DNA of 64,000 nucleotides from a virus (IMGVR_UViG_3300032216_001476:31137-95136), one strand, 5' to 3'; numbered from the stretch's first letter, positions 32,141 to 53,187 are shown. Notes: generated from the letters alone by a model not told the origin. Made by a program: numbers and translations.

Positions 32141-32328
32141 TGATTATGAATTTAAATATTATGATTTTTGATCCTTCCTATTGGATCTTTAGTATTGGTC
32201 TATCTTTTAATCGTTATGAAGAATCAGACGGTACTAATGAATGGGTAAGAAGAGAAATAGATTTAGGTCTATTAATATTATCTGTTAGGATCGATTGGAT
32301 CTTAAAATTTAAACCTGTGGACGCTTAG
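32140..32328 (+). CDS. hypothetical protein
   Basis: 62-aa ORF, last + gene before terminator. Confidence 0.55.
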   Translation: MIMNLNIMIFDPSYWIFSIGLSFNRYEESDGTNEWVRREIDLGLLILSVRIDWILKFKPVDA

Positions 32329-32366: not shown

Positions 32367-35300
32367 CTATCTAACATTATCAAGTTTCTTCTCGTAATAA
32401 AGTATCCTATTGTAGTTATTAAGTATTGGTATTGCCTTAGTAACTTTTAAGAATGTTCTTTCTTCATCATACAAAGGTTCACCATTTTCATCTTCTTCTA
32501 TACCTGCTTGTCCTGCAGGATAGTGCCATAATACTGCTTTAACTGCTTCTTTTAAATTTACTAAAGATGTAAAAGAAGGTATAACTTGTGCTGTTAAACT
32601 TTCAAAAGATGTTACATCAAAATAGTAAAGCATATCTCTTTGTAATAACTTCATCTGATTTAAAGTAATATTCCAAGTTTTTTTCTCATCATCATCATCT
32701 GGTGCCATTGCTTTTGCAGCTAAATACAATATAGTCATAGTCATAATAGCATTTATTTCAGCAAATGCTTTACGTAAATTTTCACGTTCTAGTTCACTCA
32801 TATCACCCACTTCTTTTGAAAATCTTGCTTTCAACATAGCTTTTATTGCTTTACCTATACCCTCATCAAACGCTTTAACAAGGAAAGTACGCATATATCC
32901 CTCTATTTCTCTACCTAAAAGTTCATCATATTTTTTCTTTTCATATCTATTAGCAAGAGTTTCAGGTAACCAGCTCTTAAATAAAAACAACATTCTTCCA
33001 AGTACACTTTCTTTTACTTTCACAGATGTTCTATTAGTAGAAAGACCATGTAGTTTTTTACCCACTTGACCCACTCTCAACATAAAGTTATTATACAACT
33101 CATCAAAACTTTGATTACCATTTAATTCAGGATTGTATTTGCCATACTTCTCTTCATTAAATTCAAGTTTATTATTTAAAGCTTTGTACAAACTTATAGT
33201 TTCACCATTCTCTAGTTTTATTTTTTGATTCAAACCCATAGCTACTGCTGTTTGACTCTTAAACAAAAAGTCAGTACTCTTCATTAGAGTGTAAGCATTA
33301 GGTAAAACTTTTTTTATTTTATCTATTGGTGTCTCTTTGCTTAAAACACTTGCACTAAACATTCCATCTTCACCCTCAACAATACCAGTATCAGCCATAA
33401 ACTTTAGTAACTTCTCAGACTCTTCAGAAACTATTTGACCCTTGCTCCAAAATTTAACAATAGAATCTTTAATTAAAAAAGTAGCTTTGGTTAGTTCACT
33501 CTTATCAAAATCTCTACCACCTACAGCATGTATCATATTATTTACACCACCGATTGCTAAGTTTCTTAGTGCTGAAAATGGTTGTAAAGCAAGTGCTATA
33601 AGACGAGAATATTTAACACTACTGTCACCCATTGCTGTAAATGAAATACTCCTTCCTCCCAAGTTATTATACTCAGATTTCTTTTCATAAAGCTGCTGTA
33701 GTTTGGTACCTCTATCTAATTCATTTGTATTTTCATCATCAATTTCTTTTCTAAGTTGTTTTATCTCTTCTTCTAATACTTTAGCTTTTTTATATTTTTC
33801 AGATTTATATCCTACAAAAGGTATAAGTTCGGCAGCATGATAAAACTTACGTCCTTTTAAAACTAGATTATCAGGTTTATTAGCTATTGCATAAAAACTT
33901 TTTCTCACTTCATATTCAACCATTGCTTGAAGATTCTTAGGTGCTTCTTGTTTTACAACTTTTTCACCAAACTCATTTTCTTCATTCTTAACTTGTGTCT
34001 CTTTGACTATCTCACTTATTGTATCAACATAGTCTTGCACTTGAAGTTTATGTTTATATATTAAACCCATATCACTAAACATCTTCATCATTGTGACCAT
34101 GTCTTTTGATCTTTGTTCAATAGGTACAACTTCATTTATAAACTTAGATTTTAAGTTGTAAACTTCTTTACCAGTTGCTGGATCCACTACAGAATTTCTT
34201 TCATACTCTATAGTTGTAAACATATCCATTATCCAATCCATATTAGTAACAGTACTTTTAAGATTATTAATACCGTACTCTTTGGCTAATTTTTCAGTGA
34301 TAACAGGTAAGAAATTACTTTGCAAATCTTCAACTTCTTCTTCAGGAAAATTAGCAAGATTGTCTTTTATAAGATCTTTAAAGAAGTTATAGAAATTATA
34401 TAACAATGGATCACTTGCAATCCTCGCAAAGTTTTCATCATAATATTTTGAATCTACACCATCTACTATTTTCTTAGCAACTTTAATAGTATAATAAGAA
34501 CCCTTGTAAGCATATTTTGCACCTACAGGTTTTTTCATTTGCTCAATATACTGCAATGGATCGTGTTCATCTTGCCATTGTGTTAATAAAGAATTTATAT
34601 ATTCATCAGTAGTCATACCTGCAGGTGGTAGCATCCTACCATTTTCAGAATCTACTTCTAATGATAATCTATAACGTTCTTTTGCATCCTCATATTTAGA
34701 ATAAAGTCTCTTAGCTTCTTTTATAATATCAGCTATTTCATTATTTGTAAATCCAAGTTGTTTCACTTCATCTATTACAGCTTGACGTTGTTCATCTGTG
34801 TAATCATTTTCTTTTACAAAAGGAGATGAATTAAATAAAAACGTGTTATTAGATATAAAAGCATTATAATTATCATATGCTTTTCTTCTTAGTTCATAGT
34901 TATCACCTGATTTCTCAACATCACTTTTTAAAATAAGTCGTGCAACTCTCATTTTATCGTAATACTGCTGAGAGTAACGACCTACTAATCCTAGTGTTTT
35001 TTCTTTAGCATTGTTAAGTTGTTCTTTAAAGAATATAGAATAACCATTTTTAACTATTTCTGGATGGTTTTTTACTTTGTTATATTCTTCATCAATAATA
35101 TCATAAATTCTATTATGATCTTTAGAGATTTCTAAGTTAGCTTTTTGTATAATCTTGGCAAGTATATTTATCAAAGGAATACCTGTACCAGTTATATCTC
35201 TTGTGTAACTACTAATAATATCTACATCTGGCAAACCTTTAAGATAGTTATACAGATCATTAGGATTTATTTGTTTGCTTTCAGTAGAATATTTTTTAGC

Positions 35301-36164
35301 AATTAATTTTATTGATAAGTCTACAAGTCTTCTGTTTAAGTCAAATGTTCTACTGTATATTTTTTCTACCAATGATTTATCTTCAGAAAGCAAATCTTCA
35401 TATGTTTGAAGACCTAATATTCTATTTATATTTTTCCATGTTTCGACTGCTTTATATGCAATACGAATTTGACCCATAGTAGCTTTCTCACTATTCTTCA
35501 ATACATCTTCAGCCATATCCAAATCAGATTCAGCTGTAATAAACAAATACTGAATTGAGTTTTGATCTTTTAAGACTTCCTTTTTTTGAATTGAGTCTTT
35601 AATAATATCGTTAAAATATTTAGACCTTATTGTTTTTTCTTCAAAACTTAATTCACGATTACTATTAGCTTTATCCCTTTGTTTTCTTGCTTCTTTAATC
35701 CTAAAGTTAAGAATATCAATCACTTTCTTAACTTGACTTTGAAGACTTACAACTTTTTTAGTTGCTACAGATTTAAAGAATTGTTCCTTTGTTTGTCTAA
35801 ATTTTCCTAGATTATAAATAGATCTAATCTCCCCTCTCTTGTTTTTAATAACTTTTACTCCGTTATAGTTTACAATCTTAGGCTCATCATTTGTAGTTGT
35901 CCAATCCCCATACCAACTTTTAAAATCGTTGGTATACATATTAGCATATAATCCTAATGCTATTTCTTCTGCATCATTAGAGTTATATATTATTTTACCT
36001 ACATACTGATCTAGTGATTGAAAAACATTAAAAGAAACATCATCAGGAATTCCATTTTTAACTACATCATTTAATATTTCATTATATGCTGTAGATTTTG
36101 TTTTACCATCTGATAACAAAACATCAGTTATAACATCATTAGATCTCTTAACTTGACAAGCCAT
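32367..36164 (-). CDS. large virion cargo/ejection protein (crAss-like RNAP-associated)
   Basis: 1265 aa, MAC start, Y...FKSWYGDW..EPK N-terminal motif, GRMLFLFKSWLP..EGY.RT C-terminal block, downstream of vRNAP. Confidence 0.75.
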   Translation of the reverse strand: MACQVKRSNDVITDVLLSDGKTKSTAYNEILNDVVKNGIPDDVSFNVFQSLDQYVGKIIYNSNDAEEIALGLYANMYTNDFKSWYGDWTTTNDEPKIVNYNGVKVIKNKRGEIRSIYNLGKFRQTKEQFFKSVATKKVVSLQSQVKKVIDILNFRIKEARKQRDKANSNRELSFEEKTIRSKYFNDIIKDSIQKKEVLKDQNSIQYLFITAESDLDMAEDVLKNSEKATMGQIRIAYKAVETWKNINRILGLQTYEDLLSEDKSLVEKIYSRTFDLNRRLVDLSIKLIAKKYSTESKQINPNDLYNYLKGLPDVDIISSYTRDITGTGIPLINILAKIIQKANLEISKDHNRIYDIIDEEYNKVKNHPEIVKNGYSIFFKEQLNNAKEKTLGLVGRYSQQYYDKMRVARLILKSDVEKSGDNYELRRKAYDNYNAFISNNTFLFNSSPFVKENDYTDEQRQAVIDEVKQLGFTNNEIADIIKEAKRLYSKYEDAKERYRLSLEVDSENGRMLPPAGMTTDEYINSLLTQWQDEHDPLQYIEQMKKPVGAKYAYKGSYYTIKVAKKIVDGVDSKYYDENFARIASDPLLYNFYNFFKDLIKDNLANFPEEEVEDLQSNFLPVITEKLAKEYGINNLKSTVTNMDWIMDMFTTIEYERNSVVDPATGKEVYNLKSKFINEVVPIEQRSKDMVTMMKMFSDMGLIYKHKLQVQDYVDTISEIVKETQVKNEENEFGEKVVKQEAPKNLQAMVEYEVRKSFYAIANKPDNLVLKGRKFYHAAELIPFVGYKSEKYKKAKVLEEEIKQLRKEIDDENTNELDRGTKLQQLYEKKSEYNNLGGRSISFTAMGDSSVKYSRLIALALQPFSALRNLAIGGVNNMIHAVGGRDFDKSELTKATFLIKDSIVKFWSKGQIVSEESEKLLKFMADTGIVEGEDGMFSASVLSKETPIDKIKKVLPNAYTLMKSTDFLFKSQTAVAMGLNQKIKLENGETISLYKALNNKLEFNEEKYGKYNPELNGNQSFDELYNNFMLRVGQVGKKLHGLSTNRTSVKVKESVLGRMLFLFKSWLPETLANRYEKKKYDELLGREIEGYMRTFLVKAFDEGIGKAIKAMLKARFSKEVGDMSELERENLRKAFAEINAIMTMTILYLAAKAMAPDDDDEKKTWNITLNQMKLLQRDMLYYFDVTSFESLTAQVIPSFTSLVNLKEAVKAVLWHYPAGQAGIEEDENGEPLYDEERTFLKVTKAIPILNNYNRILYYEKKLDNVR

Positions 36165-36167
36165 GTT

Positions 36168-39100
36168 TTATGATTTACATTGATTTTCTAAATAAAATTC
36201 ATTTGGTAGTTCTGATCTTACAAACTCATCTGTTCTTACAGACTTCAATATATTTTTAAAATCAGGTTCAATAAAGTTTTCTTTTGGTTCACCTATTCTA
36301 TCTGTAACAATATAAAGTTTTTCTCTAGCACGTGACACTGAAGTATACATGGATTGAGCATATGATTTAGGAGTTAAAACATAATCACCATTATTACCTT
36401 GAAAAACATGTTTTCTTATATTTTCTTCATTTACAAATACATGATTATATGTTTGTCCTTGAACCTTATGTGAATTAACTATATATCCATGTTCAACATT
36501 CATAAACTCAGGATCACTTTTGAAAGAATAATAATTTTTAAATGGTATAAATACATTCTCATTTCTACCATCTTTTATTAAAAATCCTCTAGTCATCCTA
36601 CCATTTACAGAACTTTCAGCGACATTGCTATCATTAAACTGCAACATGAATTTATAATCAGGTAAAAAGAATGATACAATATTTTCTCCAGTATTAACTG
36701 TTAAATTTTTTCCTGGAACTTCCAATTTAAAATCTTTTCCTACATTAAATATTTTATTTTTAGGAATAGCTGATTGTACTACTAATCTTTGATTACCTGA
36801 TATCTCTATATTCTCTCCTGTATTTACATCTTTTGTAGCAAAAACAGGTATTTTAGATATTATTATATCAGATTCTACAACAAATTCTCCAGAAATAAAC
36901 TTACTACCTAAAAAGTCTTTACGTACTTTAAAACTTTTTTCAATTGTGTTTTTATGATTTTCATTGTTGTAATGAATGTAAACTGCGTTCCTTGGATTTA
37001 AAGGATCTCTTTTTAAAGTATTAACATATCTTTCAAGCATCTGATTATCATTACTACTAAATAAAATATTAGCAGATGTTTTTGTATGATCAGCTTTCAA
37101 GAAAGATTGTGGAGAAAGTTGAGTATTATAAGAGTTAATATTTTTTTCTAGATTTTCATTATAGTAATCAATACCTCTCCTATACAAAATACCCAAATCT
37201 GTAATATCTTGATTCTTAGTTCTTTCTACTTTAATTAAACCTACACTCTTATCTTTTTCTTTCATTAAATTAATTGCCCAACCATCTTTATCATTTATTT
37301 CACCTACAGGTGGTATTTGTGCATAATCTCCCATAAAAAGAAACAAAGGAGATTCTTTACCAAGAAGACCTTTTCTTTCTTGTATTCTTAATTTTAAAGC
37401 TTCAATTTCTCTTGTACCAATCATTGAAGATTCATCAATAATAACTATATCATCTTTAAAAATTTTAGGAAGTAGTCTTTCGTCTAATTCACCAGTTTTT
37501 TTATCTTTAAACTCATCAATATCAATTAATACAAATTCTTCATTACCATATTTATCCATTTTAGGTCTTATACCAAGATATGATGCAAAAGTTGCTGCAG
37601 ATTTATTACCTGCTCTTTTTAATTCATTTTTTGCAGTGTGTGATGGTGCACAGTAACCAATAGATGCATTCTTTAATTTTTGTATTTTTGATGTTGCATT
37701 ACCAATACATGCTGTTTTACCAGTACCACCAGGACCATACAACAAGAAAGAATTCGTAAACAAATCTTGAGTTGTCACAGTTTTAGAAAGATGTTCTACA
37801 ACAGCATCAATTGCAATTATTTGTTGTTCATTAGCTTTAAATTGACCATTAGGTGTAAGTAAAGTATAAGGATCTCCTTTTTTATTACCACTGTCTTCAC
37901 TTGGAGGTTTAACACTAGGTTCATTAGGATCACCTGATAAATCATTATCATCACTATGATCTTGAATATCTGGTTCTGTAATAACTCTTACAATGTTATC
38001 AATACTATTTTTAAGAACAGAATTATTTATCAAATCAATACCTAATGTTTTTGCAAGTGATTTAAACAGATTAGCTAACAATTCTTTAAATCTTTCAAAT
38101 ACACTTTGATTTTTAATTTCATCATATAATGTATTATTCATTTTCATTTGAAATGCTCTATCAGTCATCATCATACTTACAAACTCATCCATATTTGTTA
38201 ATCCATAATACATAGACTTTTCATAAGATGAAAGAGAGGCATCATTGTCTTTTAATTTTTCAATGATTTCTAGAAGTTTAGGTCCCTCATTAGGATTACT
38301 TAAAATCTTAGTTCTAACATCATTAAACATATTCTCTATGTTCTTAATAAAAATTAACTGATTTTTATTAAGTGTAACCTTGTCAGTTCTATATCTCTTT
38401 AAAAGATCCTGTGTTAGTTTATGCATTAATTCATGCATAATAACAGTTTCAATATTATCAGTTTCAGATAACTTAGGATTATCTTTTCTTGCTAAAACAT
38501 GATTTATTTTTATTGAACCATTTATATATGCACCTGGATGATTTATCTTATCAGTTAATTCTATAACTGTATTCTTAATATCAACTTGTGCATCTGCAAG
38601 TAGTTTAATAAAGTTTTTATAAAAATTGTTACTTGTAGTTTTGTATAAACTATTTAAAACACTACTTAAAGTGTTTTTACCAAATACATTAAATATTCTA
38701 TTTAAAACTATATCGTTTTCAAATGAGTATTGACTAGTTGTTACACCTACACCAAATATACCAGCTAATCTATCATCAGTGGGTACGGGAGCATCCAGTT
38801 GATCTAAATACAATTCTGATTCATCATCTGCATTTTCAACAGAAGACTCTGGTTCTGTAGGTACAAAATCATCTTGTATTTCTAGATTTTCTTTTAGACT
38901 ACTTACATCATCTCCTGGATTAATATATTGACTTGCTACACTATATAATTCTGGATCTTTATTATTTACCAAGTCTGCTAACAAATCAGCATGAGAATAA
39001 TATCCACCTTCTATCACTGTACCATCAAGATTTTCAAGACGAGATGGTTTGTAATATAAAAGTTTCTTTCCATCAAGATTACCAGATATTATTTGTTTTA

Positions 39101-42100
39101 ATATCCATTCTCTTTGTTTTGGATATAAGTCAGTATAATGTTTTCCTAATAACCAGTTATAATAATAACTTAAAGCTTGTTCGTCATTATTAACTTTTAT
39201 TAACTTATCATAGTTTGCATTAGGTCTTACAGAACCAACAAATGGATTACCAAAATGCTGATCTGTATTGTTTTTTCTCATTACATTTACACCACTATCA
39301 GAATATACAGGTAAACTTTTAACACTAGAATAAGAACTAAAATCTTCAACAGTTGTCAACTTAGTTGCCACTTTATTTCTTAACGAATCTGCTAATGCTA
39401 TAATAGCTTTCTTATCACCATTATCATCTTTCCATTTCATAATATCTCCTGTTCTTCCAGATATTATAGCATTTCTTTCATTAACTACATATTTATTATT
39501 TCTATAGTTAACTACTACAGCTCTTCCTTGTTTTACAGCTGCATTTGCAAATATTTTATTTCTATCTCTAGATGCAGTTTTAAATACTTCTTCGTTTTTT
39601 TTATTAAAGATTTTATCTCCAATAATTGTATATGTTTGTTTAGTTTTACCAACAGGCGTATAGTCTATAGTAATAGCACCTTCCTTTTGAGCTATTGTAT
39701 TAGACTCAGTTGGGGGTGTTTGTTTATTAACTAAATATTGTTCACCTAATTCTACTGCTTCTTTTAAAGTATCTATGTATTCTCCAATAATACCATCTTC
39801 AGAATCTTCTACATCATACTGATTATTAATAAGCATAATATTTACTCCCTTCTCTTTCAGTATATTAGTTCTGTCATTTAAATCTTTTTTTTCATCAGAC
39901 TCTGATAATTCAGGAGAAGGTGGTGTACCTATACCAAAAATAAAACCTGCATCCATTGCTTCAGTACCCTCTGGTGCATCAAAATCATAATCATCATAAT
40001 TTATTTCATCCCCACTACTTAGTTCACCTTCATAACCATTTTCCATATCTTGAATATCTGGACCATCACCAGGTAGTTCAGGTACAGTACCATTTATAAA
40101 GTATTGTGATAGATCTTCTGGTTGATTATTTTTTATAGCATTTCTTTGAGGTACAGTTAAGTTATTAAATATAAGAGATACTACATTGGGATCTCCCATT
40201 GAATATTCTGTAAAACCACTTTTAGTAGTACCTAATGTATTTATTCTTTTATAGTTACCAACATCAGAGTTTGATTTATCTCTCTCGTATAAAAATACTA
40301 TACCAGATTCTGAATCTGTAAACGATAGATAATCAGCAAACTTTTTACCATATCCTTCTGTTTTAATTCTATCTACCAAAATAGCTTCATGTCTAGGGTC
40401 ATTTCTATCTATTGTAAAAGCTTCAAAGTTTTTTAAACTATTTACAATATTATATGGCAATGAGGTAGCCATATCAGGGTTGTTTTGTATAAATTGTTTA
40501 TAGAAGTTATCCTTGTTTTCATATAACATAGTAGGAAGAACATTTATACCTTTTATAAAATCTTCATCTGATATAAAATATTCTATAGGAATAAACTTAC
40601 CAAAACTTGTACTTGTCTGATTAGCTCCAGTTATAAAAGAATATAAAGCTAGATCTTTTGCTATTTGTATTAACTCATCATTGTTACTGAATATAAGACT
40701 CAAAAATCCTTTGTTGTTTTCAAGTTCATCAATATCACCAAAAGGATTATTATAAAGTACTTGACTAGTACCACCTTCTGTAGTGGATATATTAGTGTTC
40801 AATCTTCTAATAAAATAGTTCTCTGCTAACTCTGGATATTTAGTTTTAGCATTTACTATTCTTTGAGCTAATGAAGGACTTTCTTTTGTTTCTTGAAGAA
40901 GTCTTCTTCTTTCTTCAGTGACATCATCAGTTATATCTAAACTTGGACTTGAATATAGATAAGATCTAATTGCTTTAAACAGTCTACTATTTATTTCTAT
41001 AAATCTTTGTTTACCAACACTTCTTTTGTCTATCTTTCTGCCGTTAAAGATTAAACTAGAAATATTAAAATATAAAGAACTAAAGTGTAATGGAAACAAT
41101 TGTCTGTATAAATCTTCACCTAGCATCAAAGATCTTTCAATACTATGACCTATCTCTCCTTTAGGACTAGAAATATAGGTTCTACCTACAGCTTCATCAT
41201 ACATCACTTCACCCGCAAGCTGTTCGAGATTTAAAAACTTCTTATTTTGATTTAAGTTTCCTAACTTATTTAAGTTACTCATTAATTCAAAAACACTACT
41301 ACCAATACCCTTGGTGTATATATAAGAAGCTCCAATTATACCTGTAAGCTCACCACCTAAATCATTAAATCTTACAAACAAATCAAGTAGGTCAATTTGT
41401 TTTTCAGCAAACTCATTTAACCTCTTTCTTAATTTAGCTTTTTCAATAAGATCTAAAGATGGGTCATCTACAAGTTTTTGTATATTTGGTATTTCTATAC
41501 TCTCTTTTAAAAGATCTAAAAGATTATTTTGACCAAATAATGTAGGAGTTCTTTTAAGTGCATTTAAAGGATCTTTAAGTTCAAGAACTCTATCTTCAGA
41601 CATCATTTTATAATACTTATCTTTTAGTTCTTCAATTATAACATTTCTTGAATCAGCTACATAAGTACTAAGACTATCTCTTGATACTTGGGTTTTAGAA
41701 ACCCACTCTTCTATTATAGGTTGTTTAAAAAATCTAGTTGCAAATTTTATACTTAATATACTATTACTATCATCAGAAAGAGCTATCATCGCAGTAATAG
41801 CTGGCATAACTTCTTCTGCCCAGTTAAATCTATAAAGATTTTTATTTTTAGCGTTATCCACTGATTCAGAAAGTAATATTGAGTTGTTATCAATCTTTGT
41901 TCTCACTGAATCTTCTAGATTACCTTTTTTATCTTTTTGCTTTACAGTTGTTTCACCTGCTTCTGTTATCTTAGTAAGAGACATCACTTTATTGTTTTCA
42001 TCTAAGACATCAATAAAGTCTTGTACCACCTCCTCGTTTTCATCCACTCTAGCAATTACTATTTGTTTATCTTGATTATCTGCAAGAAAAGATCCTAATG

Positions 42101-45100: not shown

Positions 45101-46955
45101 TGAATAAATTATAATGACCACTGTTAGCTCCTTCATTTTGATGTTTTTGAAGAGCTTCAAACAACTGTTCTCTTTCAGATTGATTCTTACGAACAACGGC
45201 ATCTTTGTTTTTACCGCTCTTCTTCATACTATCTGCATATGTAAATTCTAATACTACATTATTAGTATCTTCTTTTTTAGATTTATTATATGCATTTAAA
45301 TAATTTGAAGTACTAGCAAACGCACGAGTTAAAACCTTATCAATAAAACCACTATTATACTTAATCTTCTTTTTTACTTGTTCTAAATATGTAGGATTGA
45401 TAAAAGCATAAATAGATTTGTTCTCACCATTTCTAGAAGAACCTGTGTGATATCTGTTAGGAGTAAACTTATAATATATTTCAGCTAGTTTTTTAAAACT
45501 ACTAGACTGATCTTTCATTGCATTATTTACGTCTTCGTATAGTGTTTCTGATTTTCCTGATGATGGTTTATTATATTGCTCTACCAATATATTAAAGAAG
45601 TTATTTGGTAGAAACATTTGTGCAAAGTTCATATTCAAATTATTCTTTGCAAAACTTTTAGAATTAGCTTCACTTTCTAATTCATCTATCATTTGGTCAG
45701 TAAACTCAATACCAATTTCTGATAAGAATTGTTTTACCCACGCTTTCTTTTCATCCATTGATCTGCTTTGTCTAGCAGTTTCTATAGATTTTTGAAACTC
45801 TTTAGCTTTATCATTATCAATTATGAGCTCACCATTCTTAGTGGTTACTATGTTAGAATTCTTTTGTTGCTCTAACCAGTCGTTATATATTTGAAGTATA
45901 GTAGAATTCCTGTTTGATTTTATTATTTCTGTTTTAACACCACCAACACTATCATCCCATTTAACAAGAGTTTGTTCTTGATAAGCTTTATTTGCAAATG
46001 TTAAAATCTCCTGTAACAATTGTATATTGTTAGTAGCTTTTAAATTTGCAAGTTGCTTTTTAACCTCTAATAAATAAGGTCTGTATTTAGATCTGTTATC
46101 AAGTTCACTTATAAAATTTTCAAAGTTTATTTTTTCTAACTCCGAACCTATCTCTAAAAAATTCTCAACAATGTCATCATAAGGTACATATTCTTTAATA
46201 CCTAATGAATTCATTTTATCAGATGGTATTCTAGCAAAAAATAACTTTACACGTGTACTAGCTGTATCACGAGGATTCATCATAAAAGAACTACCATCTT
46301 CAAAAGTTTCCATGATAGTTCTTTCATCTTCTGTTACATTTTCAGAAGACATACCCTCCTCAACTAAATTTTTAAAATATGCTTCATCAAGTTTTAACTC
46401 TTGAAACTTACCATCTCCCTCACTTACATTAAGACCATACTTTCGTAAGTTTATCTTAACCTTTTGTTTAAATCCTTCAAAGTTATCTATGACATTTGTA
46501 AATATATCGTAACGTTCTTTTATATCAGCAACTGTTGAAACGTAGTTTAATTCTTTAAACTTGTTTGTATATTCAGGTCTAGATTTAGCAAGTTGAACTT
46601 TTTCATCAGTATCTAAACGTGAAAGCAAATAGTCATATATTTTTTTAGATACTTCAAACTTTGCTAATGTTTTTAAGAAAGCATCACTAGGTGTTAACTT
46701 TATTTCCATACTTGGTTTTAATACACCAAGTTGATCAAGTACATCAGTTGTAATACTATTTATAAATATGTTTTCTTGATATGGACTAAACAAATCAAGA
46801 TTTACAAATCTACTACCTGCTTCTTTTTTTAATACTTCTATTGTCTCATCTATAGATCTAGTACGAACAGACATTAAAGCACTAGAAGCATCTACTAGTT
46901 TCAAAAGTTCTTTCTCACTATATTGTTTTCCGTTAAGTACGTATTTACAGCTCAT
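36168..46955 (-). CDS. virion RNA polymerase (two-barrel, crAss-like) with fused DUF4326-like, zincin and SF1B helicase domains
   Basis: RIPNQGLSS..GSDFDVDKL (DFDVD at 42831-42845), TDAQ, KP..K, DNAK; HELMH; GPGGTGKT/IIDESSM/GDYAQIPPV/HKVQGQT/YTSVSRAR. Confidence 0.92.
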   Translation of the reverse strand: MSCKYVLNGKQYSEKELLKLVDASSALMSVRTRSIDETIEVLKKEAGSRFVNLDLFSPYQENIFINSITTDVLDQLGVLKPSMEIKLTPSDAFLKTLAKFEVSKKIYDYLLSRLDTDEKVQLAKSRPEYTNKFKELNYVSTVADIKERYDIFTNVIDNFEGFKQKVKINLRKYGLNVSEGDGKFQELKLDEAYFKNLVEEGMSSENVTEDERTIMETFEDGSSFMMNPRDTASTRVKLFFARIPSDKMNSLGIKEYVPYDDIVENFLEIGSELEKINFENFISELDNRSKYRPYLLEVKKQLANLKATNNIQLLQEILTFANKAYQEQTLVKWDDSVGGVKTEIIKSNRNSTILQIYNDWLEQQKNSNIVTTKNGELIIDNDKAKEFQKSIETARQSRSMDEKKAWVKQFLSEIGIEFTDQMIDELESEANSKSFAKNNLNMNFAQMFLPNNFFNILVEQYNKPSSGKSETLYEDVNNAMKDQSSSFKKLAEIYYKFTPNRYHTGSSRNGENKSIYAFINPTYLEQVKKKIKYNSGFIDKVLTRAFASTSNYLNAYNKSKKEDTNNVVLEFTYADSMKKSGKNKDAVVRKNQSEREQLFEALQKHQNEGANSGHYNLFTLSDKTTVPIINLTKYKLNDAKQNRSSKDIQFVTSPVDTTNLDDYYEIQNSLKNELYNLAESEINRIVSYSKKLKSDSTQKIQANFDKAYQYFYLFPILNKSSLDKDGARMEEIRDRMFNGEMPSDEDKTYIKSLITDVFKKQITSTIKKLIRLNLVTKVQGEDGKINLVLDKAFSAKYLAQDEILNLSNIQKLIYGVAEFKFNYIRSQVTAMQILGADPALFYKENPIVKGKNITQLTLKEKITLVKSTMDEFSKRAAMFIAPGSQGNWTWYDEKGDVVDRSSYYAVTIEDIILDTELFNGIESTDAQEYITLQEHIDRLMSEGRIPLDIWQSITDRILASKDGQITLSPREKEVVLQPTKPVHTNDFDVNNNFNRIDYVKSSTYPLIPEVIANSPLEDLAKYFHEKEIRSGNFKTAKKTGQPGEVIKLFDKEGKFVRPNDKAFDNSKQTLSREGLRTQQEIPGQKEEIRNISQANRVLFEGLLDVSDFYISNKQLSGKDLKNLKENVRINLFENSKNELLAKLGVTVDKKGNFTFKNKKALEILLKEEAIERNFSINDIESIKLGKNGEFIIPLYMMQRGEKFEGLINSLVNKVVQLKNPGTSLVQVTGVNHKFEFSDLTKKTKNEIIWLPGYDSKKGLEYLRKTQDSIDSNGNITAGKIEAAQVIVSQFITDDEGNLIDLEKFVITDPKTNRKMLDTSKFSKEMFQLVASRIPNQGLSSMLPIEVVGFLPSYMENTVVVPNGITKQMGSDFDVDKLYAYLSTMKFKYSSDINKSLIEIDKSILNIKNQLENTNTELFKNYLSSADQTEIKKLKEDKNAIISKLKWNISEKEKSRKQKIIDKIDNVIEALYENLKSINNEQYLILQQQQLLNKEKAKKEIAKLKENKRKLKTENIIGVETVSYNLDKYKGDWTSLSDLSDDQLHQLYRDIHWEVLTHPKAFEKITKSIDFDDVKNEVAELEKLGLYDSDDSYLPMDPEEQIKIFNDNRSGKAGVGIFASLGSFLADNQDKQIVIARVDENEEVVQDFIDVLDENNKVMSLTKITEAGETTVKQKDKKGNLEDSVRTKIDNNSILLSESVDNAKNKNLYRFNWAEEVMPAITAMIALSDDSNSILSIKFATRFFKQPIIEEWVSKTQVSRDSLSTYVADSRNVIIEELKDKYYKMMSEDRVLELKDPLNALKRTPTLFGQNNLLDLLKESIEIPNIQKLVDDPSLDLIEKAKLRKRLNEFAEKQIDLLDLFVRFNDLGGELTGIIGASYIYTKGIGSSVFELMSNLNKLGNLNQNKKFLNLEQLAGEVMYDEAVGRTYISSPKGEIGHSIERSLMLGEDLYRQLFPLHFSSLYFNISSLIFNGRKIDKRSVGKQRFIEINSRLFKAIRSYLYSSPSLDITDDVTEERRRLLQETKESPSLAQRIVNAKTKYPELAENYFIRRLNTNISTTEGGTSQVLYNNPFGDIDELENNKGFLSLIFSNNDELIQIAKDLALYSFITGANQTSTSFGKFIPIEYFISDEDFIKGINVLPTMLYENKDNFYKQFIQNNPDMATSLPYNIVNSLKNFEAFTIDRNDPRHEAILVDRIKTEGYGKKFADYLSFTDSESGIVFLYERDKSNSDVGNYKRINTLGTTKSGFTEYSMGDPNVVSLIFNNLTVPQRNAIKNNQPEDLSQYFINGTVPELPGDGPDIQDMENGYEGELSSGDEINYDDYDFDAPEGTEAMDAGFIFGIGTPPSPELSESDEKKDLNDRTNILKEKGVNIMLINNQYDVEDSEDGIIGEYIDTLKEAVELGEQYLVNKQTPPTESNTIAQKEGAITIDYTPVGKTKQTYTIIGDKIFNKKNEEVFKTASRDRNKIFANAAVKQGRAVVVNYRNNKYVVNERNAIISGRTGDIMKWKDDNGDKKAIIALADSLRNKVATKLTTVEDFSSYSSVKSLPVYSDSGVNVMRKNNTDQHFGNPFVGSVRPNANYDKLIKVNNDEQALSYYYNWLLGKHYTDLYPKQREWILKQIISGNLDGKKLLYYKPSRLENLDGTVIEGGYYSHADLLADLVNNKDPELYSVASQYINPGDDVSSLKENLEIQDDFVPTEPESSVENADDESELYLDQLDAPVPTDDRLAGIFGVGVTTSQYSFENDIVLNRIFNVFGKNTLSSVLNSLYKTTSNNFYKNFIKLLADAQVDIKNTVIELTDKINHPGAYINGSIKINHVLARKDNPKLSETDNIETVIMHELMHKLTQDLLKRYRTDKVTLNKNQLIFIKNIENMFNDVRTKILSNPNEGPKLLEIIEKLKDNDASLSSYEKSMYYGLTNMDEFVSMMMTDRAFQMKMNNTLYDEIKNQSVFERFKELLANLFKSLAKTLGIDLINNSVLKNSIDNIVRVITEPDIQDHSDDNDLSGDPNEPSVKPPSEDSGNKKGDPYTLLTPNGQFKANEQQIIAIDAVVEHLSKTVTTQDLFTNSFLLYGPGGTGKTACIGNATSKIQKLKNASIGYCAPSHTAKNELKRAGNKSAATFASYLGIRPKMDKYGNEEFVLIDIDEFKDKKTGELDERLLPKIFKDDIVIIDESSMIGTREIEALKLRIQERKGLLGKESPLFLFMGDYAQIPPVGEINDKDGWAINLMKEKDKSVGLIKVERTKNQDITDLGILYRRGIDYYNENLEKNINSYNTQLSPQSFLKADHTKTSANILFSSNDNQMLERYVNTLKRDPLNPRNAVYIHYNNENHKNTIEKSFKVRKDFLGSKFISGEFVVESDIIISKIPVFATKDVNTGENIEISGNQRLVVQSAIPKNKIFNVGKDFKLEVPGKNLTVNTGENIVSFFLPDYKFMLQFNDSNVAESSVNGRMTRGFLIKDGRNENVFIPFKNYYSFKSDPEFMNVEHGYIVNSHKVQGQTYNHVFVNEENIRKHVFQGNNGDYVLTPKSYAQSMYTSVSRAREKLYIVTDRIGEPKENFIEPDFKNILKSVRTDEFVRSELPNEFYLENQCKS

Positions 46956-46956
46956 A

Positions 46957-49900
46957 TTACTTACATATTTTTTTAACGTCTTTCAAATTATTTGTACGAA
47001 TGCTAAAAGGAGGTTCACTATCATCTATATCACCAATACTTGATGCAGACTCTCCAAAATTGATATCTAAATCTAGCAAACCTGTAGAAGCATCTGTTTT
47101 GGTTTGTTCTTCAGATATACCCATAACACTATTCACATAAGATGGAATATCACCTTGAACATAAGTAACTCTACCATTATAATCTAATTTAACATTTGAT
47201 AAATCAAAACCAGGTAACAATATCTTGTTTTGATCTTTTTGAATTTTAGCTTTATTAGAATCTGCAATTTTACTCATATCTTCTTTACTTGTAATAGTGG
47301 AAAATATATTTAAGAAACCATTTTTGCCAGTTGTATAATGACTCAAAGCATCTGCTGTAGATACAATTTTAACTTCTATTGGCAAGTTATCAATTTTTTC
47401 AGTCTTAACCTTATCCATCAACTCTAAATTTTTAGAGAGTTCTTTAATCAACTCATTAGAGAATCCCATATTCTTTAGAATTGGTTCAATGGTTTGATAA
47501 TGAGTTTTAGTTTCATTATTTAAAGCTTTGGCTAAATCATGAGTGTATACCATAAGCTTTAACATATTGGGATCACCGCCATATTTAGAAGACAAATCAT
47601 CAACAATAGCTTCTACTACTTTTAAATGATGTTCAACATACCAATCTTTGTGATCTGGTCTTTCTTTAAAACCAGTGTTGTACATTTGTTTAAGATCAGT
47701 TATTTGAACTAAGTTTATAGGTTTATCAAGAGGAGCTTTGTTAATCTGACTATCTATTATATCTTTTACCTGTGCTATATATCTAAATTTCCCTGTTAAG
47801 AAATTAGTAATAAGATCATCGTTGATTCCTAACTTATTAAGATTACCATTACGAAATGAATTTACAAATCCTTTTACAGTTTTCAATCTATCACTTTCAT
47901 CTTCTATATTCATATAATCTTTTAAAAGAAGAGACAGATCTTGTAAGACATTTTTTGTAACAATTAAGTCATTTTGTACATTGGATTTTTTAGTACCAGC
48001 TTCTTGTGCATCTAATTGTATTTTAAATTCAGAAGTAAGATATTTAGTAACTATCTTCATTTCAGACATAGACATGTCTCTTAACTTTTTACCAGCTTTT
48101 AATTCTTTATAAAGTTCTTTTGCTATTTCGATATCATACTTACGATCAATTTCATCTATTATCTTAGGTGCTAATATTGCAGCATTATATTGTTCTTTAG
48201 TTATCTTTGAAAGTGCTGGATCATTTCTTAAAGCATCAGTAGATATATTTATTTGTTTTTCAGCATAAGCATAAGTATTGTCTATATTACTTTTAAAAGT
48301 TAAAGTGGCTATAGTATTATTATCACCTTCATAAAAACCCTGTATTAAAACATATGGAGCTTTTTGTTTTATTTCTTCTTTTCTTTTGTTTTCTATATTA
48401 GTTTTAGTATTTGTAGAAACAGGAGCTGTAGGTGCTGCAGGAGCAGGGGGAGGATTAGTTGTAGTAGTTTTTTGTTCTAAATCTTTTAAGTTATTATCAT
48501 TAGGAGTATAACTAAAGTTTACAACAGGATTAGCAAAATGTACATATGGACTATCAGGATTAGATGGATCAACAGGACGACCTTTTTCTATATTAGTTTC
48601 AAGTATATTCATAATATACTCGTTATAGGTCATTGGTTTTGATTTTACAACTTGTTTTTTATTATTATCATATGAAAGAAATTGCATTTTTACATTTGAA
48701 TTAATACCATTTGCTGTATCTGAACTTGCCTTTACTGTATAATAAAGACTTTTTAATTTTTCCTGTAATTGTTTAGATTTATCACCAAATCTAAATTCTT
48801 TTAAACTTTCTATATATAATATATCTTTAGGTTTTGTTTTATCCTTTACTACCCAAACTACTAATTCTCCTGTAGGAGTAATGTTCATTTGACCTGTTCC
48901 TTCTTTTAATAAAGGATTATAATCTTTTTTGTTAGATCTAAAAGTTACATAATCATTTATATAATTTTTTAAAATATTGAAGTCAATATTAAATTTTTCA
49001 TCATACTCATTACCGTATGCTGCATAAATTGCTTTTACAACATTTTTATATTTTTCTAATTCAGCACCAGTCTTACGAGTTTCTGTTTTATTATTTAGTT
49101 CATGAAAAGCAATCCACCCTTCTATAATTAAATTAGTATGTTGTTCTGCTAATTTAGGAACAGAAGCAAAACTAAATAATTGTTTTTCAGTGGGAGTGTC
49201 AATAAAGAATACAGGAAAACCTTCTATATTTTTAAGATTTTTGTTTCCAATAAAATTATCTGGATCTAAAGTTTCATTAGTACCCACTCTAATTTTTCCA
49301 CCTTTAATAATTCCTAGTTTAGTTTTAGGATGTAATACTTGAGATAATTTATTTAAATTTCGTTTTCCTCCTTCACTCTCATCTAGTCTTAGTTTACCTA
49401 AAGATTTTCTATTAACGTTAGCATATAATTCAAATTTTGTATTAGAATTATGTCCTTTAAAAATAGTTTCACGTAAGTCTTTAACAAACCTTATTTGATT
49501 TTCTAAGTTATTAATTTGCTCACCAGAAGGACCTTTGGTAAATTCTACAACATTCATTGTATTACCATCAGGATATCTAGCAGTTAACCAAGACATAGTA
49601 GGAAGATGACCTAATAATACTTTTTCTCCATTAACAATTGTTTCTATTTTTATAGGAAACTCATCTTTTACATTATCATGCACTTTGTTATCAACTGTAA
49701 AAAAATTACTTCTTTTACGAGTTTTTGTATCAGTTGGATCTAAAACATTTTCTTCTTCAAAATCATCAACATCATAATTAGCTGATATTATTAATTTAGT
49801 TCCAATGTTTATTGCTTTAGTTCCTAATACTAATGGATAATTTGGAGATGCTGTTGTTCTTTTTCTATCAACTCTATTAGCACTAACAACAGTCATTTCA

Positions 49901-52900
49901 TATTCATCACTACGATTGTTTACTTTTATACCACTTACCACCTTATCACTTCCTCCAAATATGATACCTCTTGTTTGATCAAAAGCATCAATTATTTTTT
50001 GAAGAATTGTATTTATAACACTGTTACGTGTATCCTGTACATTTTGTATTTCTCCATTTTCAAACTCATCTGGATCATTTTGATTAGTTGGTGCAGGAGC
50101 AGGTGTCACTTTACTTTTGATATTTCTACCTTTAAAAATATCAATCATTTGAAGAACCTCATTATGTAAATAAGGTTCACCAGCAATTATTATATTTGAG
50201 TCTGTTATAAGCTCTACTAACTTATCATCAATAAGATCTCCTTTATGAATAACATAAGGACCTAATTTAATACTATCTAAAAAGGTTGTACCAAAAAAAT
50301 CATTAGGTAATTCTTCTCCACCTTCTTCATCATCCACAAAATCTTCAGGTAATTCAGCCGGTTCAGTAGTATCTTTTTTAGTGTTTAAAGATTCTTTTTT
50401 ATCATACTTATCGTTATATGTTTTGATATAAGGATTAGCATCTTCGCTAGTCTTCCACTCTTCAAATGGTTTAGAAATATTATTTTTTGACTTTTCTAAA
50501 TCATATAGATTTTTTAGATAGTCATCTAATTTAGGAATAGCATTTCCTAAAAAATCAAAATCTTGAGGCTCAACATCAAATTCACTTGTATCTACAAGAT
50601 CCTCAAAATTCTCTGAACCTTGTTGTGGTTCTTCATCTATATCAGTAATATCTCTATCAGAGTTATCTGTCTCTATTTTATTATTAATAACCTGGGTAAT
50701 TGTTTCATCAAAATTGGCTAAGAAGTTTTTCTTACCATTTTTAAAATCAGCAAAACTTGCCCATTCTTTACCTAGTTTCTTTACAGTATTTTCTAAAGAA
50801 CCTAGATAATACATTCTCTTTACAAGAGGAGTTAAGAGTGTAGGATCATTACGTTCATTTTTTTCATACTGATAAAATCCTTTACTATCTTGTTTTAAAT
50901 CTTTTACACTTAACTCATTGGTTTTCAATAAGTTATCATACTCTTCTTGAAGTTCTTGTCTATTCTTTTCAGCTACAGCTAATGATGTTTTTTTACTAGA
51001 CTTATTGGTTTTTAAATCATCAATATACTTATCCATGTCTTGAATTCTCAATTTCAACATGTTAAGTTGATCTACAATACCATCACTCAAAGAACTATTT
51101 TCAGGAGTTAATATTTGATTTTTAACTTCATTTAACATCCTGTTTTCATCTACTCTTAGATTTCTATAGACAGCTTGTTGTGCAGCAAGTTCTGTAAGTT
51201 TTATTTTACGTGCTTGATCTTCTGGAGTACCATCATACAAAATATCATTATTGATTATTTTATTTTGTTTAATAATAGTGTCAGCAAGACTTCTATATCT
51301 ATTTATTTGATCAGCAGAAGTTTCATCTGGTGCAAAACCAAACTTAGCAAGTTCTTCAGGAGTTGCAGTTGATAAAGCATCTAATTTTGTTTTTAACTTA
51401 TCCTCTTGTCCAATTTGAATATGAGCAATAACAAAATCAGCAAATGCGTTATCTCTTAATAAATTACGTATAGATAAGTTTTCTTGTTTATCTGAAGCAA
51501 CCATGATTCCACTATTCATCGAAACAGATGAAATAATAGAATCTAATTTCTTTTGATCTATAACGGGTTTATTATTACTATCAAATACTATTTTTTCCTT
51601 TTTAACTTCTTCACCATTTTCATCTTTACTTACAATAGTTTCAGTTAAATAAGGATTACCAAATTTCAACCAGCTTTGTTGAGCTTGGTTGTACATTGTA
51701 ATAGCCTGTTCTGTAGTTAACTTATCTCTTTTAGATTGTATTCTATTTGCAATTGCAGTTTGACCACCACCAAGAATAGCACCAAGTCCTATACTTTTTT
51801 CAGCTTCAATATTAGGTTTGTCACCTAATCCAAATACATCTCTTGTTTGCTGATATGTTTTTTTAGCAACATTAGCATAGTTATTTAAATCAAGTACATC
51901 AGCTATTTTACCAGCAGCACCAAGTTCTTCATGATATTTTTGTATTGCAAGCTGTCCATTTTCTTCTACAAAACCTTCTCTAAAAGTACCTGATATAACA
52001 TCTTTTGCAATAGTTGCATATTTATTACTAAGTATTTTACCCAACTTTGAACTAGCTTCTTTCACTGCAGCTTCTTCACCAAATCTAGTCATTGATGCTA
52101 TATTACCAATTGCACCATCTGCCTTACCTAATATTTTATTTACAAGTGGTAATTCAAATAAGTTAGTAGCACCCAATAAAACAGCATTCATTAAGAATGT
52201 ATCTTTTGTGTTACTACCTATAATTTTCTTTTTCTCTTCTTCAGTATAATTAGAATCTTTTAAAGACTCTGTTAAAACATCTTTTACACCCTTTGCTTCA
52301 AACATAGATTCAGATGAAGTAGCTAACGCCCACGCATTAAACTTATCTATAGTTTTAGCATATTTTGCTGCATTTTGAAAATAGTTTGCTACTGATTCTG
52401 CACCCTCTATACTAGCTCCTAAAGTTTCAGCACCAACTCTACCAAGTCTAGAAAGACCAGTAATAGCTCCTTTAGCTAATCCTAATTTACTTAATGCCAT
52501 ACCAGGTATCCATGCAGATGCCATAAATGCTGCACCATCTACAAAATCTTCTGCCCAAAAGTTTGCATCACCTAAACTTTTAAAAAATCCCTGATCTCTA
52601 TCTTCAGCTTCTTGAAAAGTAGGTAACCAATTGTTCTTTATAGAGTTTTCCCATGTATCAAAAAATCCAGATATACTATTATCTGCTACAGCAGAAAAAT
52701 ATCCATTTTCATCAACCCAATTAACAGGATTAACTAATGCTCCTAAAAATCCAACACCACTACCCACTTTAGTTGCTACAAGTGTAGGTAATTTTAATAA
52801 TCCAATTCCTAATTTATTAATTCCACTTTGTCTTTGTGCATAGAAATCTTCATTATCTAATATAGGACTAAAACCAAACTTAGCATCTAAAAATCTACCT

Positions 52901-53187
52901 TCCGTATTTTCCCCTGGAATAGTTCTATACTCTTTAAATAATTCAGGTCTTCTAAATGATTCTGACTTTGAAAGTTTGTTTTCAAAAAATTGTTGAGCAT
53001 CTAAGAAACTAGAACTAGTAACAGGAGGAGGTACTGTATTAGTTTTTTGAGGCGTACCACCACCTCCAACATTACCATCAGTAGTGGGTGCAGGTATACC
53101 ACCTGTATCAGGAGTTTGATTATTTTCAACATCAATATTCTCTACAGTACCAAGATTATTATCTACAGTATTAAAATTTTCAAGCAT
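46957..53187 (-). CDS. large virion cargo/ejection protein with C-terminal HD domain
   Basis: 2076 aa; Gly/Ala-rich hydrophobic N-terminal region, coiled coils, acidic linkers, HH..THDLAK..ADALSH. Confidence 0.78.
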   Translation of the reverse strand: MLENFNTVDNNLGTVENIDVENNQTPDTGGIPAPTTDGNVGGGGTPQKTNTVPPPVTSSSFLDAQQFFENKLSKSESFRRPELFKEYRTIPGENTEGRFLDAKFGFSPILDNEDFYAQRQSGINKLGIGLLKLPTLVATKVGSGVGFLGALVNPVNWVDENGYFSAVADNSISGFFDTWENSIKNNWLPTFQEAEDRDQGFFKSLGDANFWAEDFVDGAAFMASAWIPGMALSKLGLAKGAITGLSRLGRVGAETLGASIEGAESVANYFQNAAKYAKTIDKFNAWALATSSESMFEAKGVKDVLTESLKDSNYTEEEKKKIIGSNTKDTFLMNAVLLGATNLFELPLVNKILGKADGAIGNIASMTRFGEEAAVKEASSKLGKILSNKYATIAKDVISGTFREGFVEENGQLAIQKYHEELGAAGKIADVLDLNNYANVAKKTYQQTRDVFGLGDKPNIEAEKSIGLGAILGGGQTAIANRIQSKRDKLTTEQAITMYNQAQQSWLKFGNPYLTETIVSKDENGEEVKKEKIVFDSNNKPVIDQKKLDSIISSVSMNSGIMVASDKQENLSIRNLLRDNAFADFVIAHIQIGQEDKLKTKLDALSTATPEELAKFGFAPDETSADQINRYRSLADTIIKQNKIINNDILYDGTPEDQARKIKLTELAAQQAVYRNLRVDENRMLNEVKNQILTPENSSLSDGIVDQLNMLKLRIQDMDKYIDDLKTNKSSKKTSLAVAEKNRQELQEEYDNLLKTNELSVKDLKQDSKGFYQYEKNERNDPTLLTPLVKRMYYLGSLENTVKKLGKEWASFADFKNGKKNFLANFDETITQVINNKIETDNSDRDITDIDEEPQQGSENFEDLVDTSEFDVEPQDFDFLGNAIPKLDDYLKNLYDLEKSKNNISKPFEEWKTSEDANPYIKTYNDKYDKKESLNTKKDTTEPAELPEDFVDDEEGGEELPNDFFGTTFLDSIKLGPYVIHKGDLIDDKLVELITDSNIIIAGEPYLHNEVLQMIDIFKGRNIKSKVTPAPAPTNQNDPDEFENGEIQNVQDTRNSVINTILQKIIDAFDQTRGIIFGGSDKVVSGIKVNNRSDEYEMTVVSANRVDRKRTTASPNYPLVLGTKAINIGTKLIISANYDVDDFEEENVLDPTDTKTRKRSNFFTVDNKVHDNVKDEFPIKIETIVNGEKVLLGHLPTMSWLTARYPDGNTMNVVEFTKGPSGEQINNLENQIRFVKDLRETIFKGHNSNTKFELYANVNRKSLGKLRLDESEGGKRNLNKLSQVLHPKTKLGIIKGGKIRVGTNETLDPDNFIGNKNLKNIEGFPVFFIDTPTEKQLFSFASVPKLAEQHTNLIIEGWIAFHELNNKTETRKTGAELEKYKNVVKAIYAAYGNEYDEKFNIDFNILKNYINDYVTFRSNKKDYNPLLKEGTGQMNITPTGELVVWVVKDKTKPKDILYIESLKEFRFGDKSKQLQEKLKSLYYTVKASSDTANGINSNVKMQFLSYDNNKKQVVKSKPMTYNEYIMNILETNIEKGRPVDPSNPDSPYVHFANPVVNFSYTPNDNNLKDLEQKTTTTNPPPAPAAPTAPVSTNTKTNIENKRKEEIKQKAPYVLIQGFYEGDNNTIATLTFKSNIDNTYAYAEKQINISTDALRNDPALSKITKEQYNAAILAPKIIDEIDRKYDIEIAKELYKELKAGKKLRDMSMSEMKIVTKYLTSEFKIQLDAQEAGTKKSNVQNDLIVTKNVLQDLSLLLKDYMNIEDESDRLKTVKGFVNSFRNGNLNKLGINDDLITNFLTGKFRYIAQVKDIIDSQINKAPLDKPINLVQITDLKQMYNTGFKERPDHKDWYVEHHLKVVEAIVDDLSSKYGGDPNMLKLMVYTHDLAKALNNETKTHYQTIEPILKNMGFSNELIKELSKNLELMDKVKTEKIDNLPIEVKIVSTADALSHYTTGKNGFLNIFSTITSKEDMSKIADSNKAKIQKDQNKILLPGFDLSNVKLDYNGRVTYVQGDIPSYVNSVMGISEEQTKTDASTGLLDLDINFGESASSIGDIDDSEPPFSIRTNNLKDVKKICK

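Follow-up and report, generated by a model that had tools for sequence, protein, structure and literature searches.

Junction-facing terminal cysteines probably tie three giant RNA-polymerase cargo proteins of a crAss-like phage end to end

Introduction

How three giant, separately translated proteins might be held together is the question raised by positions 32,367 to 53,187 of a sequence from a 95-kb IMG/VR virus record, 77% complete. The whole stretch analysed, of 64,000 nucleotides (nt; IMGVR_UViG_3300032216_001476:31137-95136), is hereafter called the window; it has a G+C content of 29% and a switch of coding strand near position 32,200. The interval is filled by three consecutive minus-strand open reading frames (ORFs), for p2076, p3595 and p1265 (modules A, B and C), with gaps of 1 nt between p2076 and p3595 and of 3 nt between p3595 and p1265. 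A megablast search of a phage collection with the gene for p3595, the virion RNA polymerase (vRNAP), gave zero matches, and the identity to known phages is 21-28%, which together mark the phage as a divergent member of the crAss-like phages (Crassvirales), the most abundant phages of the human gut. Judged by homology, the three proteins form the RNA-polymerase cargo block of this phage and would be virion components that are delivered into the host cell.

A sequence-only reading of the locus had noted that Cys residues occupy the ends of the three proteins that face one another, and had proposed that these ends are joined in gene order by a disulfide or a metal bridge. Here we compare the Cys residues with the ways in which the block is split or fused in related phages. 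The result is that a pair of terminal Cys residues accompanies each break, and that inter-protein disulfides, one between Cys2075 of A and Cys3 of B and another between Cys3593 of B and Cys3 of C, probably join the three polypeptides head to tail in the virion.

Cysteine is almost confined to the ends that face the junctions

On translation, p2076 has a sole, penultimate Cys, at 2075 of 2076 residues (C end ..KKICK); p3595 has four, at residues 3, 3083, 3102 and 3593 of 3595 (start MSCK.., end ..NQCKS); and p1265 has a sole Cys at residue 3 (start MACQ..). Cys3083 and Cys3102 of p3595 lie inside its helicase domain and are not conserved. Cys is missing from both outer ends (N end of p2076, C end of p1265). 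This is exactly the map drawn in the sequence-only reading, which had also given the outer ends as Cys-free and the gene gaps as 1 and 3 nt, both confirmed here. In the window's 46 other ORFs the Cys content is 0.96%, and Cys never occurs within residues 2-5 or the last four. At that rate about 66 Cys would be expected in the three proteins, where 6 are found, and the probability that at least four of the six fall into the 12 junction-facing positions is 1.3e-10; a chance origin of the pattern is excluded.

The cysteine pair follows the break between modules

Related loci were collected by an alignment-based scan of IMG/VR, which gave 79 loci with 10-kb flanks, the best 80 of 272 relatives being kept; a search with a single 601-aa (amino acid) piece as query found nothing, and an alignment was needed. 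ORFs were called in the loci, overlapping starts were corrected and the modules were labelled with hidden Markov models (HMMs). In all, 82 loci were tallied, and co-occurrence was counted on adjacent ORF pairs of 66 dereplicated loci. Both junction-facing Cys residues were present in 63 of these pairs, only the upstream one in 7, only the downstream one in 7 and neither in 133 (Fisher p = 3e-37), most of the discordant pairs being attributable to gene insertions or to a small, unrelated protein with a CxxC. Thus, the Cys residues co-occur across junctions in the orthologues, as the sequence-only reading had anticipated.

The four possible architectures are all represented: the three modules are separate in 23 loci, A+B is fused and C separate in 20, A is separate and B+C fused in 14, and a single ORF encodes A+B+C in 6. 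At the A/B junction, the modules are split with an N-terminal Cys on B in 41 loci and fused without it in 34, so that 75 of 75 loci are concordant. At the B/C junction, 45 loci are split with a C-terminal Cys on B and 24 are fused without it (69 of 70 concordant), the sole exception, L055, being broken within the catalytic core, probably by a frameshift. On a tree of the polymerase core the architecture changes state about 10 times for A/B and about 8 times for B/C; the independent contrasts are concordant in 9 of 9 cases for A/B (p = 0.004) and in 5 of 6 for B/C, that is, in 14 of 15 in total, with none in the opposite direction. Fused genes lacking the Cys, also foreseen in the sequence-only reading, therefore exist in numbers, and their fusion sites carry no Cys pair: any Cys in the junction region was seen in 4 of 34 A+B fusions (two lineages) and in 1 of 22 B+C fusions. 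The triple-fusion ORFs, of 4,743 to 7,315 aa, contain zero Cys, and across the 82 loci the interiors of the chain proteins contain 0.019%. The outer ends are free of Cys, both at the N end of the first member (0 of 63) and at the C end of the last (0 of 68).

The position of the break has itself moved. The zincin domain is found in B in 66 loci and in the downstream protein in phage phi14:2, which means that the B/C break point shifted in evolution; in the window this break is placed after the added helicase. The Cys pair tracks the break and not any domain. Residues 171-337 of phi14:2 g065 correspond to residues 2760-2994 of p3595, the zincin HExxH domain lying on opposite sides of the B/C break in the two phages. 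Locus L044, with ORFs of 908+, 238, 486, 454 and 3885 aa, seems to combine an additional break with an insertion: the 238-aa product, a mini-link with Cys at residue 4 and at -2, lies right behind a protein ending in Cys, and about 4.7 kb with two Cys-containing ORFs separate it from the vRNAP, whose N-terminal Cys is at residue 6.

Two loci are broken elsewhere. L055 has ORFs of 3167 and 2989 aa separated by 84 nt, with the break in the conserved ..LPIEVVGFLP.. core, and L075 has ORFs of 3203 and 311 aa separated by 253 nt, with the break within module B; neither break has terminal Cys. Both probably reflect a frameshift, an assembly error or an intervening sequence, and not a genuine split of the protein.

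A linear chain is the only pairing that fits all architectures

Four thiols allow three perfect pairings. An A+B fusion leaves just two of them, at the C end of B and at the N end of C; a B+C fusion likewise leaves just two, at the C end of A and at the N end of B. Because the Cys residues are retained in this way in the partial fusions, the linear chain A-B-C is the only pairing that fits all four architectures. An obligate intramolecular loop between the N and C ends of B is excluded, the two Cys residues of B often being lost separately.

One further possibility is that each terminal Cys acts independently, in a homodimer, in attachment to the portal, the capsid or DNA, or as the site of a lipid or other adduct, with no A-B-C chain. 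The partner of a thiol cannot be named from sequence alone, and in loci L015 and L021 the N-terminal Cys of B is kept although A has no terminal Cys. Independent roles, however, leave unexplained the strict pairwise co-occurrence, the loss of both Cys residues precisely upon fusion of two modules, with the other pair retained, the Cys-free outer ends and the new pair at the extra break of L044, and we regard this alternative as very unlikely.

The rule extends to distant homologues and to cultured phages

Conservation of the terminal Cys in orthologues, presupposed by the sequence-only reading, held for all three proteins, in homologues spanning 22-99% identity. All 20 homologues of p1265, down to 22% identity, have a Cys at residue 3 (residue 4 in P0020, the most distant), and it is their only Cys except in P0001 and P0020. 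In about 90 vRNAP homologues, 2,600-4,300 aa long, Cys is restricted to residue 3 or 4 and to position -1, -2 or -3, and each homologue of p2076 (P0141-P0164) carries one Cys, located at -2 to -4 or at -12. Overall, the Cys lies at residues 3-7 on the N side and mostly at -1 to -4, up to -15, on the C side, its neighbours vary as well, and both codons are in use (TGT 141, TGC 34).

The same holds for phages in culture. In phi14:2, the sole Cys of g067 is its last residue (1797 of 1797), g066, the crystallised RNA polymerase, has only Cys3 and Cys2179 (of 2180 residues), and g065 has only Cys3. In PhiCrAss001, gp47 has a sole Cys at 2339 of 2341 (C-terminal CNS), gp50 has Cys5, Cys1334 and Cys2404 of 2412 (N-terminal CITTNSTIEELAAK, C-terminal ICGANTLYEL), and gp49 has a sole Cys5 (N-terminal CAIIPQVR). 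These three proteins have masses of 262.5 (gp47), 276.9 (gp50) and 154.5 kDa (gp49). The terminal-Cys rule is general in Crassvirales, phi14:2 and PhiCrAss001 included. According to the literature, the cargo proteins of both phages have been detected in virions by mass spectrometry.

These phages also bear on whether the Cys codons could be a by-product of a nucleotide signal at tight junctions (translational coupling or re-initiation, with TGTAA-like words), of gene calling or of chance. TGTAA-like words do occur at both window junctions, where the gaps are only 1 and 3 nt. However, PhiCrAss001 gp47 is coded on the strand opposite to gp50 and gp49 and still has its sole Cys at -3; in L042, L044, L047 and L063 the chain members are 500 nt or up to four inserted genes apart and retain the Cys; both TGT and TGC are used, at varying positions and among varying neighbours; and the probability in the window is about 1e-10. 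The opposite-strand gene, the non-adjacent members and the mixed codons show that the feature is a property of the proteins and not of the gene junctions, and an origin at the nucleotide level, which we consider next to impossible, was rejected on these grounds. They also modify the proposal of a chain in gene order: pairing by order stood, whereas the order is that of the modules and not of the genes (gp47 on the opposite strand; inserted genes in L042 and L044).

A disulfide is the most likely link

A structural parallel comes from a phage of another family. In cyanopodophage A4 (Anabaena phage A-4L), cryo-electron microscopy has revealed that gp27 Cys1715 is disulfide-bonded to gp26 Cys5 within the pre-ejectosome of the capsid interior (PNAS 2025, PMC12002296). 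In the A-4L genome the two proteins (gp27, 1717 aa; gp26, 1114 aa) are adjacent gene products, and Cys1715 (at -3) and Cys5 are their only Cys residues. As in the window, both are large internal or ejection proteins, the upstream one with a lone Cys by its C end and the downstream one with a lone Cys by its N end. Unlike the window, A4 has one such link and not two and has no RNA polymerase among these proteins, and it belongs to the Saffermanviridae and infects a cyanobacterium. Its authors describe the bond as stabilising one interface and do not cast it as a rule that tracks splits and fusions (PMC12002296). Comparison of A4 gp26-gp29 with the crAss modules by hmmsearch, blastp and phmmer gave no significant similarity, and the A4 pair would be an analogue, or a homologue too distant to detect. 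In PhiCrAss001 virions, inter-subunit disulfides occur in the tail and at the portal vertex (PMC10172136). With the A4 structure, this makes a disulfide the simplest reading of the crAss termini. We conclude from the covariation of the termini that the three proteins are very probably tied end to end, and from these parallels that a disulfide is the most likely chemistry of the link.

Several points weigh against a disulfide chain. A disulfide between chain members has been observed in no crAss-like phage. Most of the hosts are anaerobic and their cytoplasm is reducing, and the thioredoxin and DsbA families were not found in the 95-kb record, itself 77% complete; a search of the record for Erv/ALR also gave no match, yet the control was silent in every control genome, so that this result is uninformative. 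In L015 and L021, as said, module A has no terminal Cys while B keeps Cys3, and L059 lacks the expected C-terminal Cys. Loss of the N-terminal Cys of B upon fusion is partly trivial, because fusion removes that terminus; what is not trivial is the absence of a Cys pair from the internal fusion sites. Finally, cleavage of the fused polyproteins has been suggested (Drobysheva et al., bioRxiv 10.1101/2020.03.07.982082), and if it took place before packaging a tether would seem unnecessary. In L015 (8046-9230) and L021 (7605-8825), a protein of 394-406 aa with a CxxC at residues 41-45 is encoded between A and B; this inserted protein may be an alternative partner for the Cys3 thiol of B.

The reducing cytoplasm, together with the search for a phage thiol oxidase, which gave no match, would also suit termini that pair by other means, through a shared metal ion, a thiol contact made only during assembly or a signal for a packaging factor, with no covalent chain in the mature virion; covariation shows that the termini pair and is silent on the chemistry. 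Against this, each terminus has one conserved Cys and no conserved neighbouring His, Cys or Asp. A metal bridge is unlikely because of this single conserved ligand per terminus; two thiols do not suffice for an ordinary Zn or Fe site. Moreover, the only solved case of the pattern, A4, is a disulfide, and PhiCrAss001 virions hold disulfides. We therefore rate pairing without a disulfide as improbable, although less so than independent roles of each Cys. Split inteins or trans-splicing were also considered and rejected: no intein or Hint family was found in the three proteins with Pfam, Cys residues that lie 1-2 residues from the chain ends leave no room for intein fragments, and the fused relatives have no junction Cys.

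A conserved segment behind each N-terminal cysteine

Each N-terminal Cys is followed by a conserved segment of about 40 aa that comes in three flavours (Table 1), and the same flavours are used at the A/B junction in one clade and at the B/C junction in another. Type-specific HMMs found almost no internal copies of these segments; one CPN-like copy, without Cys, is internal to the long C protein of L030 and L067. When all N-terminal segments were pooled into one HMM, the model proved too heterogeneous; it missed 82 N-terminal-Cys proteins, and its lack of internal copies means little. Prediction of a complex between residues 3396-3595 of p3595 and residues 1-200 of p1265, each supplied as an alignment, returned a score of 0.01, that is, no answer from the predictor.

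When the nearest split and fused relatives are compared, the last ~80 residues of A and the first ~30 of B fail to align to the fused protein, and for this reason the fate of the connector upon fusion is not traceable residue by residue. The A+B fused proteins of L031-L033 have a single internal Cys (..HLQGCYFYG..) at residue 1289 or 1305, about 30 residues from the expected former A/B junction, which may be a relic of a lost connector.

A disulfide chain could work as follows. The segment behind the N-terminal Cys would dock on the C-terminal tail of the preceding protein, and the disulfide would then lock the contact. With each Cys 1-2 residues from a chain end, the product would be an almost unbranched thread of 6,936 residues, the counterpart of the single polyprotein of 4,700 to 7,300 aa of other crAss-like phages, and the nearly Cys-free interior would avoid mispairing with other thiols. 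The link could ensure equimolar co-packaging of the proteins, let the partly unfolded cargo traverse the tail as a single thread, or do both, and reduction in the host cytoplasm would open it. PhiCrAss001 cargo must partly unfold for tail passage (PMC10172136). The Cys rule suggests that physical continuity is needed at least until packaging; in the fused forms the conserved zincin domain possibly cuts later.

More speculatively, and with considerable reserve, the Cys and its docking segment could be regarded as a modular split-site connector, which would rejoin separately translated pieces of a giant injected polyprotein, the thread being packed, passed through the tail in a fixed order and released by the reducing cytoplasm in a redox-gated manner. 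If so, the recurrence of the three flavours at different junctions and break positions would mean that a connector is gained whenever a new break arises.

Relation to known ejection proteins

The g067-g066-g065 block of phi14:2 and gp47, gp50 and gp49 of PhiCrAss001 share with the window a DFDxD polymerase, flanking giant proteins, a zincin domain and the terminal-Cys pattern. The window proteins differ from them in being only 21-28% identical, in a longer module B (3595 aa, against 2180 in phi14:2 and 2412 in PhiCrAss001) that adds a Dda-like helicase, and in a B/C break that comes after the zincin and helicase domains, whereas in phi14:2 it comes before the zincin domain. Forms of the block made as a single giant polyprotein have been described (Drobysheva et al., bioRxiv 10.1101/2020.03.07.982082, citing Yutin et al. 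2018); they have the same modules in the same order within one ORF and no Cys pair at the internal junctions.

Schitoviridae offer another comparison. Their polymerase belongs to the single-subunit RNA polymerases of the T7-like kind, not to the DFDxD two-barrel kind. Like the window, they combine a giant virion RNA polymerase with companion ejection proteins that are nearly Cys-free. The figure reported for these proteins (N4 gp50; DEV gp71, gp72 and gp73) is 0.00075% Cys, against 0.865% for the proteome (PMC11445570). Cys is reported absent there even at the termini and no tether has been proposed, whereas the window does not share the complete suppression of this Cys-free ejection operon (N4 gp50-52): its interiors are depleted and the terminal Cys strictly kept.

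Earlier publications already cover the fused forms, the location of all three proteins in virions, the poverty in Cys of ejection proteins and one disulfide of the A4 type. A full-text literature search, whose coverage left out most subscription papers, found no description of the terminal-Cys rule of Crassvirales or of its covariation with splits, and the word cysteine does not occur in PMC10172136 or in Drobysheva et al. Crassvirales have about 700 kDa of RNA-polymerase cargo to pack and deliver, and the structure of PhiCrAss001 left these proteins unresolved. If it exists, a covalent chain would explain why split and fused architectures are interchangeable and why Cys is purged elsewhere in the proteins, and would account for equimolar cargo and for a possible order in ejection. 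It would also extend the single disulfide of A4 to a rule for injected phage proteins, and would represent a natural route to very long polypeptide threads made from pieces.

Features of the locus and neighbouring genes

The coordinates of the three modules, their motifs and the junction elements are collected in Table 1. Residues 113-616 of p2076 match phi14:2 g067, a virion structural protein (25% identity, E = 1e-14). Near the C end of p2076, residues 1853-1949 (window 47341-47631, minus strand) show a weak match to an HD domain (E = 5.7e-4; 20.6 bits, under the Pfam cut-off of 22). The p3595 protein matches phrog_16227 (E = 1e-40) and a Dda-like helicase PHROG; phrog_325 is among the matches. 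The catalytic role of DFDxD in crAss-type RNA polymerase is known (Drobysheva et al., bioRxiv 10.1101/2020.03.07.982082), and in an alignment of 28 homologues the block QMGSDFD.DK around this motif is invariant save for Val1374, which is nearly invariant. In the zincin motif, Glu2842 and His2845 are invariant among the 28 and His2841 is nearly so. At the C end of p3595, Cys3593 is invariant in the alignment and Asn3591, Gln3592 and Lys3594 are nearly invariant. The p1265 protein matches genes annotated as RNA-polymerase subunit in phages cr85_1 and cr111_1 and in the PhiCrAssBcn phages (21-25% identity, E down to 2e-9), and the HMM of module C also finds PhiCrAss001 gp49.

Table 1. Features of the cargo block, with positions in the window, and patterns of the three connector flavours
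Feature	Position	Strand	Basis
Module A, p2076, 2076 aa, first member of the proposed chain	46957..53187	minus	ORF call, homology to phi14:2 g067
TGT codon of p2076 Cys2075 (..KKICK-stop), proposed donor end of junction 1	46963..46965	minus	homologues P0141-P0164
Module B, p3595, 3595 aa, virion RNA polymerase with zincin domain and Dda-like helicase	36168..46955	minus	ORF call, PHROG matches, motifs
p3595 Cys3 and ~40-aa conserved N-terminal segment of the CKY..NGK.Y type, proposed acceptor end of junction 1	46821..46949	minus	
DFDVD, p3595 residues 1371-1375, catalytic motif of crAss-type RNA polymerase	42831..42845	minus	28-sequence alignment
HELMH, p3595 residues 2841-2845, zincin HExxH motif	38421..38435	minus	alignment of 28 homologues
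Dda-like/UvrD-type helicase domain, p3595 residues 3039-3576	36228..37841	minus	Pfam, PHROG
TGT codon of p3595 Cys3593 (..ENQCKS-stop), proposed donor end of junction 2	36177..36179	minus	alignment
Module C, p1265, 1265 aa, last member of the proposed chain	32367..36164	minus	ORF call, homology
p1265 Cys3 and ~40-aa conserved N-terminal segment (hairpin, then DGK..S.AY..IL), proposed acceptor end of junction 2	36030..36158	minus	Cys3 invariant
Connector flavour 1, CPN..SPEWK.LV.K.GE..AW.EF			
Connector flavour 2, CKY..NGK.YsE.EL			
Connector flavour 3, hairpin, then (A)PNG..S.L[FY]..L...G...A...Y			

Towards its C end the vRNAP protein has a zone of variable cargo. In the window it holds the Dda-like helicase, within which residues 3070-3261 match AAA_30; in the homologues P0022-P0102 Pfam also identifies DUF1768/YbiA (PF08719), AlkB-like (PF13532), SprT-like (PF10263) and other domains in this zone. 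Outside the chain rule, a protein of about 250 aa with a Cys-rich C-terminal tail (..C..C, for example CSTC, CTTC or CATC) is encoded 30-110 nt downstream of the B+C fused protein; it is found in L019, L023, L024, L034, L035, L038, L040, L044, L047, L050, L056, L058 and L064. On the other side of the block, just upstream of the chain, the window encodes p838 (53192-55708, minus strand), with zero Cys. In most loci one or two ORFs of 600-1000 aa stand upstream of module A, Cys-free in nearly all relatives and lacking terminal Cys, and these proteins are likely to be further ejected cargo not included in the tether.

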